From Candidatus Omnitrophota bacterium (lineage in GTDB: Bacteria; Omnitrophota; Gorgyraeia; Gygaellales; Profunditerraquicolaceae): a stretch of 64,000 bases of DNA. The DNA is taken from assembly GCA_028717245.1 (NCBI GenBank), contig JAQUOD010000004.1:65508-129507 (forward strand), written 5' to 3'. Positions 14,005-59,078 of the stretch are shown here, in pieces (the first letter of the stretch is position 1; the number at the start of each line of letters is the position of its first letter). The translations under genes and the position numbers were made by a program. The notes beneath the pieces are model-generated. The model did no database searches. It saw only the letters and a program-made list of their open reading frames with translations, and had not been told where the DNA came from.

Positions 14005-14739
14005 TTAATTATCTTTTAATAAATCCGGCCTTGATTTTTTGGTAATTTTTAAGGCTTGTTTTTTTCTCCACTGCGCTATTTTTTTATGATTACCTGATAA
14101 AAGGATTGCCGGGACCTTCATGCCTTGATAATTGGCAGGCCTGGTATACTGTGGATACTCCAATAGATTACCCGTAAATGACTCAAAATTCAAGGAATTT
14201 TTATCCCCCAATACACCCGGGATAAGGCGCACTAAGGCATCCACTAAAACCATAGCCGGCAATTCCCCGCCGGTCAAGACATAGTCGCCGATAGAGATCT
14301 CTTCATCCACAAGAGAAAGCCGCACCCTTTCGTCTATGCCTTCATAATGCCCGCAGATTAAAATGAGGTGCTTACATTTGGCCAACTTTTGCGCTACTCT
14401 TTGATTTAATTTCTCACCCCGCGGGCATAATAAAATAACTTTTGTTTTTTTCGTATCGCGTATCGCGTATCGCGTATCGCGTATCTTCGATGCACGACGA
14501 AAAATATCATTCACTGCCCGGAATATGGGCTCTGGGTTTATCACCATGCCTGAGCCGCCGCCAAAAGGCCGGTCATCGACTTTCCTGTGTTTATCCAAAG
14601 TATAATCCCGCAGGTTATGGATGTAAATCTTGACCTTACCTTTATTTTGCGCCCGCTTGAGAATAGATTCATTCAGCACGGGTTCGAACATCTTGGGGAA
14701 TATGGTGAGGATATCTATACGCATCGTATAAGGTATCAA
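14005..14739 (-). CDS. trmD: tRNA (guanine37-N1)-methyltransferase. Carries an in-frame heptamer tandem repeat insertion.
   Basis: [17 protein letters not shown]..., typical TrmD. The (CGTATCG)x4.5 array at 14452-14485 encodes [12 protein letters not shown] in a variable loop. Confidence 0.9.
14452..14485. repeat. Heptamer tandem array (CGTATCG)n inside the trmD coding sequence, in frame.
   Basis: cgtatcgcgtatcgcgtatcgcgtatcgcgtatc, read directly. Confidence 0.85.
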
Positions 14740-14805
14740 AGTATCAAGGTGTCAAGGTATCAAAGTTTTTTCTTTGACACAATGACACCTGACACTATGA
14801 CACTT
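14732..14805. repeat. Junction palindrome (GTATCAAR)n-T6-(TGACACN)n between tgt and trmD.
   Basis: ggtatcaaagtatcaaggtgtcaaggtatcaaag tttttt ctttgacacaatgacacctgacactatgacact. Same word family as 33893-33960. Confidence 0.75.
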
Positions 14806-15949
14806 AATTAGAATTATATTTATCTAAGAACCTCTTCTTGAACTCCTCAAACTGATCCTCTGCAATAGCCTCCCTGACCCTGCGCATCAGTTCCAAATAA
14901 AAATGTATATTATGCAGCGATACCAGCCTTAAGCCCAGGATTTCTTCGGTATTAAACAGATGGCGCAGATATGAGCGGCTAAAATTTTTACAGGCATAAC
15001 AACTGCACTCTTTATCCAGAGGCCGGAAATCTTCTGCAAAAGGCGCGTTCCTGACGACCAGTTTGCCTTCGCTGGTAAAAGCCGTGCCGTTTCTGCCGTA
15101 ACGCGTAGGCACTACGCAATCAAACATATCAATGCCTAAGCCCACTGCTTCCACGATATCCTTTGGCGTGCCTACTCCCATAAGATAGCGCGGTTTATCC
15201 TCAGGCAAGAAGTTCACCGTAAAATTAACAATATTATAGCTTAAGTTTTTAGGTTCACCAACAGAAACTCCGCCGATAGCATAACCGTCAAAGCCTAGCG
15301 CGATTAACCGCTCGCTGCATTCCCGGCGCAGCTCCTCATAAGTTGCACCCTGCACTATGCCAAATAGTAGTGTTTGGTGTTTGGTGTTTGGTGTTTGGTG
15401 TTTGGTGTTCGCCGATAACCGATAACCGATAACCGCCTTTGAGCGCTTCGCCCAATCCAGCGTCCTCTTCATCGCTACTTCAGCTTGGTCTCTACTAGAA
15501 GGATAATGCACACACTCATCCAAAGGCATAATAATATCCGAACCTAAATCGTCCTGGATACGGATAACCTCCTCGGGAGTCAAAAAATGTTTCTGGCCAT
15601 CGATGTGAGACTGGAATTCAACGCCCTCATCGCTAACCTTCCTTAAAAGCGCCAAGCTGAATATCTGATAGCCTCCGCTATCGGTAAGTATAGGGCCTGG
15701 CCAAGACATAAAATTATGCAATCCCCCTGCCTTTTTAATTATACCCGTACCCGGACGCAAAAAAAGATGGTAGGCATTGGACAAGACAATCTGGGCGCCG
15801 CTCTCTTTTAATTCCTGAGGAGAAAGCGCCTTAACCGTCCCCTGCGTGCCTACCGGCATAAAACACGGAGTATCTATATCTCCGCGGGCTGTGTTGAGTT
15901 TGCCCAAACGCGCCTTTGCATTTTTATCTTGATGAATTAATTTAAACAT
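14804..15949 (-). CDS. tgt: Queuine tRNA-ribosyltransferase (tRNA-guanine transglycosylase), with in-frame heptamer repeat insertions.
   Basis: [42 protein letters not shown]. (GTTTGGT)x5 plus (CGATAAC)x3 at 15372-15434 encode [19 protein letters not shown]. Confidence 0.9.
15372..15434. repeat. Two adjacent heptamer tandem arrays, (GTTTGGT)x5 and (CGATAAC)x3, in frame inside tgt.
   Basis: Read directly. The translation maintains the Tgt reading frame. Confidence 0.85.
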
Positions 15950-15980
15950 TCAAACATTAAAACATTCTAACTTTCAAACA
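15945..15980. repeat. ACATTCAAAC-family repeat spanning the queA-tgt junction. The tgt ATG lies inside the last repeat unit, with no SD.
   Basis: aacattcaaacattaaaacattctaactttcaaac. Confidence 0.8.
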
Positions 15981-57067: not shown

Positions 57068-57861
57068 TATCTATGCCTGTGCTCCCGCATAAAATTATAA
57101 AAACCCGAAGTCTCAACCCAAAAAACAAAGAGGTTACGGCAATTCTCGGATATCCTTAGCCTCTTTAAAGCAAAGATATCGTCATCGGCAGAGTCCTTGC
57201 CCGGGTTAGTGACCACGGCAAACTTATACCCTGCCTCGGCAACCAGCTCTTTTATTTTATCATTAAACCTGCCTTCGGGATAGCTAAAGGCGAGGACCTG
57301 GCGGCCTAACTTCTGCTCCAATATTTTCTTAGAGTCAAATATTTCCCTTTTTAACTCTCCATCCGATTTTATCTCTACCAGAAGGCCAGGGCCAAGAGCA
57401 TGGCTGCCAAAATTGATGAGCCCTGAATCCTGCATAATCTTAATCTGCTCCCAGCTTAACCTGTCATCCTGCATCCTGCCTACCTCATTAATGATGATAA
57501 ACATAGTAGCCGGAAAATTATATTTTCTTAATACCGGAAAGGCATAGAGATAAGTATCCTTATAGCCGTCATCAAAGGTTATAGCCACGGTCCTTGGAGG
57601 GAGCCTCTTCTTCTCTTTAATCAGAGCGGCAATTTCTTCTAAAGGTAAAACATGATAGTGCCGGCTCTTTAAAAAGCGCATCTGGCGCTGGAAAGTTTGT
57701 GCGGATACGCAGATTCGGTTTTCCGGGTTCGCCTCAGGAGCGACCGAGTGATACATCAATATGGGAACAACATAGTGTTGCCGGATAAAAACAGCTCCTG
57801 AAATAATCAAGGCAAAGATTAGACCCAAAACAATAATTACTACTCTTTTATACCTAGGCAT
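57067..57861 (-). CDS. Polysaccharide deacetylase (CE4 / NodB homology) with N-terminal TM.
   Basis: ITFDDGYKDTY motif. Confidence 0.8.
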   Translation of the reverse strand: MPRYKRVVIIVLGLIFALIISGAVFIRQHYVVPILMYHSVAPEANPENRICVSAQTFQRQMRFLKSRHYHVLPLEEIAALIKEKKRLPPRTVAITFDDGYKDTYLYAFPVLRKYNFPATMFIIINEVGRMQDDRLSWEQIKIMQDSGLINFGSHALGPGLLVEIKSDGELKREIFDSKKILEQKLGRQVLAFSYPEGRFNDKIKELVAEAGYKFAVVTNPGKDSADDDIFALKRLRISENCRNLFVFWVETSGFYNFMREHRHR

Positions 57862-58943
57862 TTTAAATATACCTTTTCCGTTTCTAAAGCCATTTTTTCC
57901 TGGGAAAAGTTCTGCTCTATAAAAACCCTGGCGTGGCTGCTAAAAGACGCTGTTTTATCAGGATGCCTTAGCAGTTCTAATATTGCGCAAGATAAATCCT
58001 GCGTATTTGCCGGCCTGGTTAATAAACCGCTATAGCCATCCTGAATCAAACTTTTTATGCCGCCTATATCCGAACCGATTACGCTTAAGCCTGAAGCCAT
58101 CGCCTCCATCAGCGCAAGGCCCAGCCCTTCTTTCGTAGAGGGTAAAACAAATAAATCCATGGCAGATAATACCCCCCGCGTATCCGTAACCGAAGGGAAG
58201 AAAAATATGTTTTTCTTCAGGCCGAGCGATTTGGTTAAATTTATTAATTTTTCTTTCATCCTGCCGTCCCCGACGATAAGCAATTGCGCATCCGTAATCT
58301 CAGCGATCACTGCCTGCATGGCTTCAATAAGATAGGCATGCCCTTTTTCTTCAGAGAGCCTGGCCACTATCCCTATTACCGGCCCATCGCCCAACCCGAG
58401 TTTTCTTTTTGTTTCAATTCTGGATCCTTTATCTAGGATTTGGAACTTTTTTACATCTATACCGTTATGGATAACCCTTATCTTAGCCTCTGCCACGCCA
58501 AAATCCTTTATCAGGTGTTCCTTTACGGACTCACTGATGGCAATAACCATATCACCCCAACAGGGAAAAATCCTACGGAAGATCCTCCTCTTAAAAAAGC
58601 CGTGGCAGGTAGAAACATAAGGCACCCCTAAAGAACGCTGGATGAACCAACTTAAAACCTGGGTCACGCGGGTATTGGCATGAAGGATATCGATTTTTTT
58701 CTCTTTGATAAATCTGGAGAGTTTAAATTTGCTGATGAAAACTTTATAGCTTATCTCTGATTTTGTTTTTATGGGTAAGGCCAAATGGGTTATGCCACAA
58801 GAGGTAAGATCCGGAATAAGTTCTCCGCCGCTTGAGGCCACAAACACATTGTGACCCCTGCGCTTAAGGCCCGCGGCTAAGGTCAGGGTATAACTGCTTA
58901 TTCCGCCGATGTTGAGATGATTTGTAAGATAAAGAATGTTCAT
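57840..58943 (-). CDS. GT4-family glycosyltransferase (WaaG-like).
   Basis: GGISSYTLTLAAGLKRRGHNV and the EGLGLALMEAMASG GT4 motif. Confidence 0.8.
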   Translation of the reverse strand: MNILYLTNHLNIGGISSYTLTLAAGLKRRGHNVFVASSGGELIPDLTSCGITHLALPIKTKSEISYKVFISKFKLSRFIKEKKIDILHANTRVTQVLSWFIQRSLGVPYVSTCHGFFKRRIFRRIFPCWGDMVIAISESVKEHLIKDFGVAEAKIRVIHNGIDVKKFQILDKGSRIETKRKLGLGDGPVIGIVARLSEEKGHAYLIEAMQAVIAEITDAQLLIVGDGRMKEKLINLTKSLGLKKNIFFFPSVTDTRGVLSAMDLFVLPSTKEGLGLALMEAMASGLSVIGSDIGGIKSLIQDGYSGLLTRPANTQDLSCAILELLRHPDKTASFSSHARVFIEQNFSQEKMALETEKVYLKCLGIKE

Positions 58944-59078
58944 ATTTTAAAATATGGAGCTAAATGTCCAATTATCCAATTGCCAAATCCCAATTAATTC
59001 CCAATTATTCAATTACCAATTGTAGAATTGGACATTGGTAATTTATTTGACATTGGAAATTGGTAATTGGCCATTACG
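58944..59078. repeat. Long imperfect palindrome of (CCAATTA)-type words and their complements (TAATTGG) at the GT4 junction.
   Basis: gtccaattatccaattgccaaatcccaattaattcccaattattcaattaccaattg tag aattggacattggtaatttatttgacattggaaattggtaattgg. Confidence 0.8.

Follow-up and report, generated by a model that had tools for sequence, protein, structure and literature searches.

Tandem arrays of short words occupy many of the gene junctions in a 64-kb stretch of contig JAQUOD010000004.1 from a Candidatus Omnitrophota bacterium (the window, whose positions are used throughout). From their distribution in the window and in 83 syntenic loci of relatives, these word arrays are probably DNA-level repeat elements of an Omnitrophota lineage that turn over fast, and not dedicated regulatory signals. 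Three lines of evidence carry this reading: presence and absence of arrays at orthologous junctions, near-identical copies in inverted orientation, and the lack of a strand-specific pairing signal. On these grounds the "self-propagating repeat class" mentioned in an earlier note on this DNA is, with the qualifications given below, the best fit among the functions that the note offered.

Word arrays in the window

The window carries approximately 57 co-directional housekeeping genes, with all long open reading frames (ORFs) on the minus strand and an intergenic share of about 5%. Tandem arrays of short words are found in 15 of its 56 gene junctions, i.e. in 15 of the 25 junctions of at least 20 nt, with words of 7-9 nt in 14 cases and of 23 nt in the remaining one. 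The 31 junctions outside these 25 are shorter than 20 nt or overlapping, and have normal Shine-Dalgarno (SD) sequences. Word arrays are present at every locus cited in the earlier note, as seen with Tandem Repeats Finder (TRF), a listing of gaps on the mRNA strand and a repeat finder, but with 15 junctions out of 56 its description of the junctions as "systematically filled" is overstated.

That the arrays are real and beyond chance is confirmed by several counts. Chains of exact 6-mers (at least three copies at 6-10 nt spacing) number 13 in the window, against 0.1 (maximum 1) in 100 Markov-1 randomisations. TRF arrays, which have 2.7-7.9 copies in the window, occur at 0.41 per kb, four-fold the density of 0.10 per kb in a non-clade control of 1.35 Mb of loci from other phyla, and 17 of the 31 TRF rows lie in or on the intergenic 5%, which is an approximately ten-fold concentration. 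Hairpins built of words (wordy hairpins) reach 1.97 per 100 kb, compared with 0.15 per 100 kb in the other-phyla controls. These densities are lower bounds, since TRF pairs, exact 6-mer chains and folding without G·U pairs missed most imperfect word hairpins; the best-performing detector was an arm-alignment scan of junctions.

In the window and the syntenic loci together there are 169 arrays, 107 of them within mapped junctions, with a period of 7 in 109, 8 in 27, 6 in 17, 9 in 9 and 10 in 7; the window itself is a mixture of 7-, 8- and 9-mers by TRF. From one locus to another the density of arrays varies between 0 and 0.8 per kb. At least 13 unrelated word families are present within the 64 kb, all with AT-rich words free of G-tracts, and the 169 clade arrays use 126 distinct words, grouped by exact canonical form. 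Single-linkage clustering of words (edit distance of at most 1, with rotation and reverse complement) was rejected in favour of exact canonical words, since it merged 133 of the 169 arrays, a chance effect of the small 7-mer space.

The 15 array junctions fall into two classes. Six contain inverted word arrays (five of 7-9-nt words and one of 23-nt words) and form strong predicted hairpins, with sense-RNA folds of -29.6 to -76.1 kcal/mol and z scores of -2.4 to -8.5. For these six, the earlier prediction of a word array followed by its complement, folding into a hairpin, was borne out. It does not apply to the other nine, which are direct-only and mostly unstructured (z -1.0 to +0.5, with one exception at -2.9). 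The inverted arrays are:

14733-14803, minus strand: 8-mers GTGTCAnn (four copies) and TTGAYACn (three to four copies), filling the tgt to trmD junction; mRNA loop AAAAAA; fold -35.6 kcal/mol, z -7.8
33893-33964, minus strand: GTATCAAAG/GTGTCAAG against CTTTGACAC/TTGATAC, exactly stop-to-start between the GH57 branching enzyme gene and uppS; loop UUUUUU; 26-nt arms, 85%; fold -30.4 kcal/mol, z -6.4
38955-39040, minus strand: 9-mers (UUGAGUUUA-type and AACUCAAUG, four copies) at the junction of an HMGL-like gene and purA; 42-nt arms, 81% complementary; fold -41.4 kcal/mol, z -8.1
44810-44916, minus strand: GAGTT/AACTC word family (8-9-mers; TTGAGTT against AACTCAA), from clpP to a class-V aminotransferase gene; fold -29.6 kcal/mol, z -3.6
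48678-48827, minus strand: palindrome with two 23-nt words per arm (GCACCAGGTGC...), from an SIS/CBS (KdsD-like) gene to an HAD (KdsC-like) gene; TRF period 23; 57-nt arms, 77%; fold -76.1 kcal/mol, z -8.5
58944-59078, minus strand: CCAATTA/AATGTCAAAT-type against AATTGG words, between two glycosyltransferase (GT) genes; fold -32.6 kcal/mol, z -2.4

The 48678-48827 palindrome was absent from the earlier note. The first two elements share the word pairing GTGTCAA/GTATCAA against TTGACAC/TTGATAC, and the array at 44810-44916 uses the word family of 38955-39040 and is 75% identical to 38973-39037. The 3' arm of 38955-39040 overlaps in-frame ATGs 5' of the likely purA start, and the Pfam match of purA begins at residue 15. 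The element at 58944-59078 aligns weakly to a heptad-periodic family of the relatives that has similar words.

Among the direct arrays the largest family is that of AATGTTTGA (AAUGUUUGA-like 8-mers), found at five junctions, all in one orientation, and likewise missing from the earlier note. The direct-only junctions are:

6010-6044, minus strand: AAUGUUUU/AAGUUUGA 8-mers, beginning in the last codons of a ferredoxin-like gene, with GGAGG and the next start after the array
15940-15984, minus strand: AATGTTTGA 8-mer family, covering the queA stop, the 24-nt spacer and the first tgt codons
18957-18989, minus strand: heptamer GUUACKA (GTAACT), 4.6 copies, just 5' of queH; z -1.0
29011-29062, minus strand: AATGTTTGA 8-mer family, replacing the last approximately six ispG codons and abutting the proS start ATGTTTTGG; z +0.49
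32351-32386, minus strand: heptamer GUAAGCY, five copies, between cdsA and dxr; z +0.07
35543-35571, minus strand: weak GUAACU array of two to three copies, filling the junction from a DUF4912 gene to the GH57 gene
46413-46459, minus strand: AAUGUUUGA, 5.8 copies, from an lptB-like ABC ATPase gene to the trigger factor gene, with an SD (GAGGG) after the array; weak fold of -10.2 kcal/mol, z -2.9
52450-52479, minus strand: AATGTTTGA 8-mer family, 5' of a PfkB-family kinase gene; z -0.7
56009-56038, minus strand: GTAAGCT family in opposite orientation (AGCUUAC), about two copies, between two GT9 heptosyltransferase genes

The array directly abuts the start codon at 15950, 29012, 32352, 35543 and 56009. 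At the sites given in the earlier note as 35546-35582 and 56009-56045 arrays were found, but of only two to three copies. Its GTAAGCT array at 47992-48022 exists but was placed about 20 nt off, the true position being 48011-48042, and this array and the one at 63150-63187 are not spacers, as both lie inside ORFs. The words do thus also occur within coding sequences, as the note had said, and the ORF-internal arrays are those with words free of stop codons in each of the sense frames:

14452-14485, minus strand: in-frame array in trmD
15370-15435, minus strand: in-frame array of 66 nt, or 22 codons, in tgt
29232-29263, minus strand: in-frame heptamer array in ispG, encoding the 7-residue repeat RLSTSDY RLSTRPI
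48011-48042, minus strand: perfect heptamer array CUUACAG (mRNA strand), 4.6 copies, inside an LptC/LptA-like ORF at residues 25-35, with no stop in any frame
54975-55007, minus strand: stop-free heptamer array AGUCACA, 4.7 copies, encoding VTSHKSQVTSQ and joining two GT9 heptosyltransferase domains in a 687-aa ORF (53945-56008)
63150-63187, minus strand: perfect heptamer array CUUACAG, 5.4 copies, inside the 3' part of the lpxK ORF
63823-63855, minus strand: in-frame array in lpxK

We infer that 54975-55007 is a former junction array turned into the linker of a fusion between two genes. Other two-domain fusion ORFs of the lipopolysaccharide (LPS) block are 59079-61175 (GT4 and GT9), 61179-63116 (LpxL-like and ELM1-like) and 47168-48115 (LptC and LptA).

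Turnover and dispersal among relatives

The 83 syntenic loci comprise three contigs found by exact protein look-up and 80 found by a metagenome scan with the GH57 protein, and span 73-86% GH57 identity. The best database relatives of the GH57 protein are 85-86% identical, the named ones all being "Candidatus Omnitrophota/Omnitrophica bacterium"; for IspG, the best species-representative genome among the matches listed is 60% identical. Gene order from clpP to infB is essentially invariant across these relatives, and the junctions vary in length between overlaps (about -46 nt) and over 300 nt. Thus uppS and cdsA overlap in all, while cdsA and dxr overlap by ATGA in most relatives and are separated by 35-266 nt in approximately one quarter, including the window with its 35 nt of GTAAGCY.

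The most variable case is the GH57-uppS junction, which ranges from an 11-nt overlap to 308 nt. It is an overlap, such as ATGA, or a spacer of 1-2 nt in about 35 loci, and at least 30 nt long in 55% of the relatives, often with some kind of hairpin. Where the junction is filled, it mostly holds word palindromes, the words being unrelated: GTATCAAAG in the window, AAATCCAAAT in L083, TAGCGTA in L084 and L133, GTTCATA in L085, TAGGTTA/ACACCTA in L090 and L109, AAAGTTAA in L092, GTAACTAG in L093, AGTCGATAG in L106 and L115, and GGGGTAA in L163. Given the approximately 35 genomes with an overlap or minimal spacer and the unrelated words elsewhere, the elements are derived, dispensable and rapidly replaced. 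The most direct comparison is that of the strains L107 and L109, whose two flanks are 99.5% and 98.7% identical, yet which carry unrelated word palindromes, each exactly stop-to-start; additional substitutions just inside uppS suggest that the alleles were swapped by recombination. The earlier note had asked whether words are conserved between sister genomes or turn over rapidly, and the answer is rapid turnover, the same junction holding different word palindromes in different genomes.

Turnover extends to a conserved enzyme, as shown by the position of the ispG-internal array at 29232-29263, where relatives have heptamers of other words (LSAIRYP LSALP, LWTMDYG LWTRP and others). The relatives with an ispG-internal heptamer array are L081, L082, L086, L090, L094, L096, L099, L107/L109, L116 and L124. 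At the ispG-proS junction an array replaces the last six ispG codons in the window and, with independent words, in L090 and L140.

These comparisons also bear on whether the arrays are an artefact of assembly or scaffolding. Short repeats can be mis-assembled in metagenomes, and nothing more specific points in that direction. The elements are 30-170 nt long, below or near read and insert lengths, the flanking ORFs are intact and in frame, and the same architecture is seen at orthologous junctions in dozens of independent assemblies (JGI, ENA, NCBI), leaving an artefact with next to no credibility.

The words differ from junction to junction, and the same families come back at loci far apart, as the earlier note had observed and as the repeat finder and similarity comparison bear out. 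The clearest recurrence is between 14740-14780 and 33924-33964, which lie 19 kb apart and share 97.6% identity across 41 nt when one of them is inverted (E = 1e-14). In this pair of GTGTCAA elements (14733-14803 and 33893-33964) the loop and the asymmetries of the arms are inverted too; the two are copies of a single element that face opposite ways with respect to transcription. GTAAGCT arrays are present at four sites in both orientations and GTAACTA arrays at two, 21 nt of 35543-35571 being identical to 18972-18992 in inverted orientation. The GUUACKA word of 18957-18989 is also found in the relatives L093, L111 and L116.

Dispersal is seen within and between other genomes of the clade. In L133 the core AGCGGATAGCGGATAGAAAAACTATACGCTA (AGCGGATAG...CTATACGCT) is found at two junctions with different numbers of words per arm, as one would expect of copies that spread and afterwards "breathe" by slippage. 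A heptad-phased family (CAAATGA CAAAGCA CAAAATT CAAAATA AATCTAA ...) occupies the GH57-uppS junction in L097, L125 and L129, the HMGL-purA junction in L102 and the DUF4912-GH57 junction in L098; the copy in L125 is interrupted by another small palindrome, a nested insertion. Each genome has its own dominant words. Exact words are shared between loci in about 65 pairs, where about 5 are expected by a rough estimate.

A purely local origin would have every array arise in place, through slippage of the junction's own sequence in units that include the stop and/or start codon, with inverted arms added by local template switching and no dispersal. It is true that the ispG-proS array (...AAUGUUAGAAUGUU|AUGUUUUGG) resembles an amplified proS start region, that the tgt start is also ATGTTT, that template switching is described as creating and homogenising hairpin arms in the cases treated by PMC8794818 and PMC8604942, and that word count per arm varies between copies. 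Local birth does not account for 97.6% identical inverted copies 19 kb apart, for the AATGTTTGA arrays at 46413 and 52450, which are flanked by unrelated sequence with genes starting ATGAAA, for the same cores and families at different junctions within L133 and across genomes, or for word sharing above chance. As a general explanation we therefore consider it quite improbable. Some arrays may nevertheless have been born locally, the proS start ATGTTTTGG itself resembling one word of the ispG-proS array, but the dispersed copies need more.

Termination, RNA pairing and translation

The hairpins are not canonical intrinsic terminators, which agrees with the earlier note. At least five T in the 8 nt after the stem were found for only one of 17 wordy junction hairpins, none of the terminator-like hits on the mRNA (minus) strand of the window is a word element, and the only overlap with such a hit, in the 23-nt-word element, is on the plus strand. 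A true terminator with a GC stem and U-tract is present at 36453-36436(-), after a 118-aa ORF, and relatives carry one at the same junction. Likewise a sigma-70-type promoter (TTGACT-17-TATAGT, extended TG) at 37661-37633(-), 5' of an OmpA-family gene, has the same motif in relatives. Conservation of these motifs at the same junctions shows that the lineage uses ordinary signals elsewhere. The elements could still be Rho-independent terminators or attenuators that lack a U-tract and punctuate the 64-kb gene array, as stable hairpins do lie directly 3' of stop codons. With 16 of 17 lacking a U-tract, a canonical terminator elsewhere in the window at a junction where relatives have one as well, elements sitting within gene pairs that overlap in relatives, and AT-rich stems with frequent mismatches, this has very little probability.

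A stronger case can be made for hairpins selected as RNA, serving as barriers to 3'-exonucleases or as RNase processing sites that set the stability of operon segments, as does REP of E. coli, with the word structure incidental. Strong predicted stems start 0-7 nt from the upstream stop codon. In five of six cases the inverted element separates genes with no functional relation (tgt and trmD, GH57 and uppS, HMGL and purA, clpP and aminotransferase, GT and GT4), the sixth lying between KdsD-like and KdsC-like genes, and the 55% of relatives with at least 30 nt at GH57-uppS often have a hairpin there. When G·U pairs are allowed, the RNAfold structures of junction hairpins of all kinds have approximately two G·U pairs on the sense strand for each on the antisense strand.

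This apparent bias is absent from a comparison independent of folding, in which the arms of 38 wordy inverted arrays from 22 loci were aligned directly. In total there are 1312 matches (78% complementarity), and the mismatches comprise 73 of G·U type and 63 of A·C type (p = 0.44), together with 234 transversions. A selected helix would show an excess of wobble pairs and few transversions, and there is no sign of selected sense-strand RNA pairing here; the wobble test is taken as negative for wordy hairpins, as the RNAfold bias was not reproduced. Nor do sense and antisense folding energies differ (10 against 7; 6 against 6). The same element occurs in both orientations, genes overlap at the same junctions in close relatives, and nine array junctions out of 15 have only direct arrays, which are mostly unstructured. 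Selected hairpins are thus an unlikely explanation, and the roles in mRNA processing, stability or attenuation that had been suggested are not supported as selected functions.

Two further properties of the words concern their composition. The idea that junction words are selected for, or seeded by, stop triplets was rejected by a composition-matched test (63% of sense words contain one, against 55% expected from shuffled words; density 21 in 5' arms against 14 in 3' arms), the only effect that held being a trivial depletion of stop triplets inside ORFs. Among the 38 wordy inverted arrays of clade junctions, such as 33893-33964 in the window and 11577-11656 in L109, 29 have a purine-rich and 7 a pyrimidine-rich 5' arm (p = 0.0003, with copies that are not independent); the same count for other hairpins is 35 against 26. 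Such purine-first polarity is unaffected by inversion of an element, and is therefore a property of the element type.

With regard to translation, an SD motif (GGAG, GAGG or AGGA, 4-20 nt upstream) is found at three of the 15 array junctions and 25 of the 41 ordinary junctions (Fisher p = 0.014), a count that includes uncertain start codons. The arrays thus push the SD aside, and it is chiefly this depletion that hints that they may not be wholly inert. The translational coupling previously proposed would, if anything, be disrupted, as arrays come between genes with an ATGA overlap in relatives and deprive the downstream gene of its SD motif.

The depletion could be read as cis control of translation, in which the words are iterated sites for a single-strand binder (S1, cold-shock or Csr-like) that drives or tunes SD-independent initiation, as has been proposed for the TAACTGA repeats of Beggiatoaceae. 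In addition to the scarcity of SD motifs, the end of the array is often 0-10 nt from the start codon, the five AATGTTTGA arrays are co-oriented and mostly unstructured, and the TAACTGA sets are a parallel, lying mostly just 5' of starts without a ribosome-binding site (RBS; MacGregor 2015, PMC4679880). On the other hand, a binder would face 13 or more unrelated word families within the 64 kb, and 126 distinct words in the 169 arrays of the clade, the GTAAGCT family is present in both orientations, arrays are not conserved at orthologous junctions, and the same words are found within coding regions. Control of this kind is accordingly improbable. A more elaborate form of it would make the arrays a modular post-transcriptional layer of this Omnitrophota clade, with a binder of oligonucleotide-binding (OB) fold, S1 or cold-shock protein (CSP) type, one word per protein, that replaces SD initiation and re-couples genes. 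Hairpin polarity and genome-specific words would then reflect co-evolution with the binder, and the arrays would be mobile "plug-in" intercistronic regulators swapped between strains; we regard this as decidedly improbable.

Proposed origin, other repeats and known systems

We return to the reading of the word arrays as DNA-level repeat elements, for which the following course of events can be proposed. A short word, mostly of 7 nt and here of 7-9 nt, would be amplified head-to-tail by replication slippage, as in the long simple sequence repeat (SSR) or heptamer-repeat class. Many arrays would then gain an adjacent reverse-complement array by template switching or by copying as a unit, giving an imperfect palindrome of 20-45 bp per arm, and either process would keep the arms similar without selection for pairing. 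Whole elements would be copied to other junctions in either orientation, and exchanged between strains. Purifying selection would only filter what persists, namely elements between a stop and the next start in co-directional operons with both ORFs intact; words that are stop-free in every sense frame would also persist in frame, in tolerant protein loops or fusion linkers. The side effects would be that genes that overlap or abut in relatives are pulled apart and the downstream SD is displaced, while the polycistronic mRNA would receive a strong hairpin from the inverted class or an A/U-rich unstructured leader from the direct class. Slippage and template switching as the generators, the near-neutrality of the elements and the mechanism of copying are what we infer from these patterns.

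Several points weigh against this reading. For the word elements no mobilising enzyme, fixed-end terminal inverted repeat or target-site duplication was found: the window ORFs scanned against Pfam include no transposase domain, and comparison of filled and empty GH57-uppS and cdsA-dxr sites gave no convincing target-site duplication. Copy number per family is seen only within 64 kb of the source genome, where palindromic families have at most two copies each (97.6% and approximately 75% identity). SD depletion beside essential genes (such as proS, dxr and uppS) is a sign that translation initiation may need support from the arrays, which are then perhaps not entirely neutral. The many genomes with some hairpin at GH57-uppS could indicate that a hairpin is wanted there, the purine-first polarity of wordy hairpins is unexplained, and all five AATGTTTGA arrays are in one orientation.

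The junctions hold further repeats. Small mobile palindromes and MITEs (miniature transposable elements with inverted repeats) are found in the same junctions as the arrays, so that the junctions act as general insertion sinks. A 91-nt near-perfect palindrome (AGGGACGGTTCTCAAC...GTTGAGAACCGTCCCT) at 6481-6571, between a CO-dehydrogenase-family gene and a ferredoxin-like gene, has an 85% identical copy in L140, a 77% relative, at 11577-11661 in the GH57-uppS junction, and is thus a clade-wide mobile palindrome. An element with inverted ends of about 20 nt (TAAGTGAGGACATAAGTTATGG ... CCGTAAGTTATGCGCTCATTAA) sits in relatives exactly between a TAA stop and the next ATG, at 13206-13471, 9793-10000, 15800-15956 and 20370-20524 of L090 and in junctions of L116, L083, L086 and L106; it is seemingly flanked by TAA on both sides, which suggests a TAA/TTAA target specificity. 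The window has only degenerate pieces of it, at 36325-36492 and 49790-49837. A separate dispersed family of paired GGGACAGTCCCC ... GGGGACAGTCCC palindromes, with a 74-nt unit and copies 76-94% identical, is present in three long gaps (9498-9571, 21099-21172 and 18356-18409).

A GC-rich repeat of 156 nt occurs at 19905-20059 and 53499-53653 in the same orientation (96.8% identical), with a partial copy at 19005-19029. It sits amid AT-rich surroundings in two ORF-free gaps, 19834-20082 and 53439-53944 (506 nt), has no match in Rfam even at E <= 1, and could be a non-coding RNA or the remnant of a mobile element. The region 18100-21200, of low GC (0.39), contains a DUF3800 gene and a trypsin-like peptidase gene between queH and ruvB, each flanked by long repeat-filled gaps, and may be an inserted island.

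The window as a whole has a G+C content of approximately 44% and a constantly negative GC skew of the plus strand. It contains no tRNA genes, and Rfam covariance models at gathering score have no match in it, nor do its other intergenic repeats match Rfam. By Pfam, its genes include a Wood-Ljungdahl block (ACS/CODH beta subunit, a Prismane/CO-dehydrogenase-family protein, MTHFR, FolD and FTHFS), rnhB, rplS, trmD, tgt, queA, queH, ruvB, scpA, trpS, infB, nusA, rimP, proS, ispG, rseP, dxr, cdsA, uppS, the GH57 branching enzyme gene, purA, serA, clpP and tig, and an lpt/kds/LPS-core block, of which lpxK is the last gene.

Tandem 7-8-mers with their complement were also seen in unrelated uncultured bacteria, namely Clostridia (L047, 793-862 and 1943-2046), Thermomicrobiales (L063, 2741-2851), Nitrospirae (L013, 9880-9971) and Parcubacteria (L012, 11054-11106, directly 3' of ispG), and heptamer arrays of AATTCGG and AATTATG recur in two gut Clostridia contigs (L054 and L025). 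With the same architecture sporadically present in unrelated lineages, the phenomenon is probably general and under-described. Bacterial tandem heptamer repeats became known in about 1990 and still lack an explanation.

A literature search found no description of such repeats in Omnitrophota. The direct arrays belong to the class of long SSRs or heptamer repeats. Long SSRs of 5-11 nt with an excess of heptamers (Mrazek 2007) are summarised in PMC4679880 and PMC4692102, and the latter also cites tandem heptanucleotides of cyanobacteria, the short tandemly repeated repetitive sequences (STRRs) of Calothrix. As far as these summaries describe them, long SSRs and STRRs are like the present arrays in having a short head-to-tail unit that is most commonly a heptamer (109 of 169 here), a mostly intergenic location, a sporadic distribution across phyla and a function that is not known. 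They differ, to the same extent, from our arrays with many unrelated words per genome, common 8- and 9-mers, and at least one third of junction arrays paired with an inverted array. No published word (TAACTGA; STRR1-3; CCCCAGT, TTGGTCA and CAACAGT; GGGAATC; GGGGAYT; TTTTGAA) is found in tandem within the window.

Direct repeats of TAACTGA, known from marine Beggiatoaceae and from some Cyanobacteria and Bacteroidetes (MacGregor 2015, PMC4679880), have 2-6 copies a few nt 5' of starts, usually without an RBS; upstream stops are overlapped and reverse copies are tolerated in ORFs. Our arrays similarly lie just 5' of mostly SD-less starts and, when stop-free, inside ORFs, but they have many words and frequent inverted arrays where the TAACTGA system has a single word and just one inverted repeat across the genome. 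TAACTGA itself is found in the window as four single copies over both strands, none of them tandem.

Repetitive extragenic palindromic (REP) sequences, with the bacterial interspersed mosaic elements (BIMEs) and REP hairpin doublets (REPINs) built from them (e.g. PMC3116915), and MITEs resemble the word elements as short imperfect extragenic palindromes between co-directional genes, dispersed in both orientations in species-specific families, with nested insertions possible and with occupancy that differs between relatives. REP arms are not made of tandem words, however, and REPs are large near-identical families mobilised by REP-associated tyrosine (RAYT) transposases, whereas neither RAYT, fixed ends nor target duplication was seen for the word elements, from window ORFs against Pfam and from filled against empty sites. 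The features of MITEs, too, are lacking at filled compared with empty sites, which have no shared ends or duplications. The arrays differ from CRISPR in being contiguous 7-9-mers (once 23 nt) with no spacers. Template-switch hairpins, as outlined in PMC8794818 and PMC8604942, offer a DNA-level route to adjacent reverse-complement copies and to homogenisation of arms without RNA selection, which fits the lack of a wobble signature; in that outline they are a mutational mechanism and not an element family, and leave dispersed copies unexplained.

For the hairpin class the closest known case is that of the inverted pairs of GGGAATC heptamers in Xanthomonas (Rehm et al. 2015, PMC4692102). There are 70-75 such convergent pairs per genome, capable of forming stem-loops or cruciforms; 89-93% of the repeats are intergenic, mostly between co-directional ORFs and on average 28 nt from the 3' end of the upstream ORF, without conservation of length from one species to another (PMC4692102). 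The likeness lies in two convergent arrays of one word, of which we find six cases in the window and 38 in clade junctions. The single G-rich, quadruplex-capable word of Xanthomonas contrasts with at least 13 AT-rich families here, which differ between genomes at the same junction, and tandem GGGAATC, GGGGATT or GGGGACT is absent from the window.

Tandem heptamers and their inverted pairs are thus known already. What is new is the many words in one genome, the 8-9-mer and 23-mer versions, and the fact that across the clade different words fill the same operon junctions, together with documented consequences in the form of lost overlaps, lost SDs, C-terminal replacement and gene fusion. By way of false N-terminal extensions, replaced C-termini and fusions, such elements can mislead ORF calling in Omnitrophota and in other uncultured lineages, and if arrays do support SD-independent initiation, this would have a bearing on translation start in many SD-poor phyla. 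The 83 relatives provide a clean natural experiment, in which one conserved gene order has junctions that are empty or filled with different words, so that gain, loss, word turnover and co-evolution of arms can be reconstructed site by site, and downstream effects on coupling, SD and fusion can be tested.

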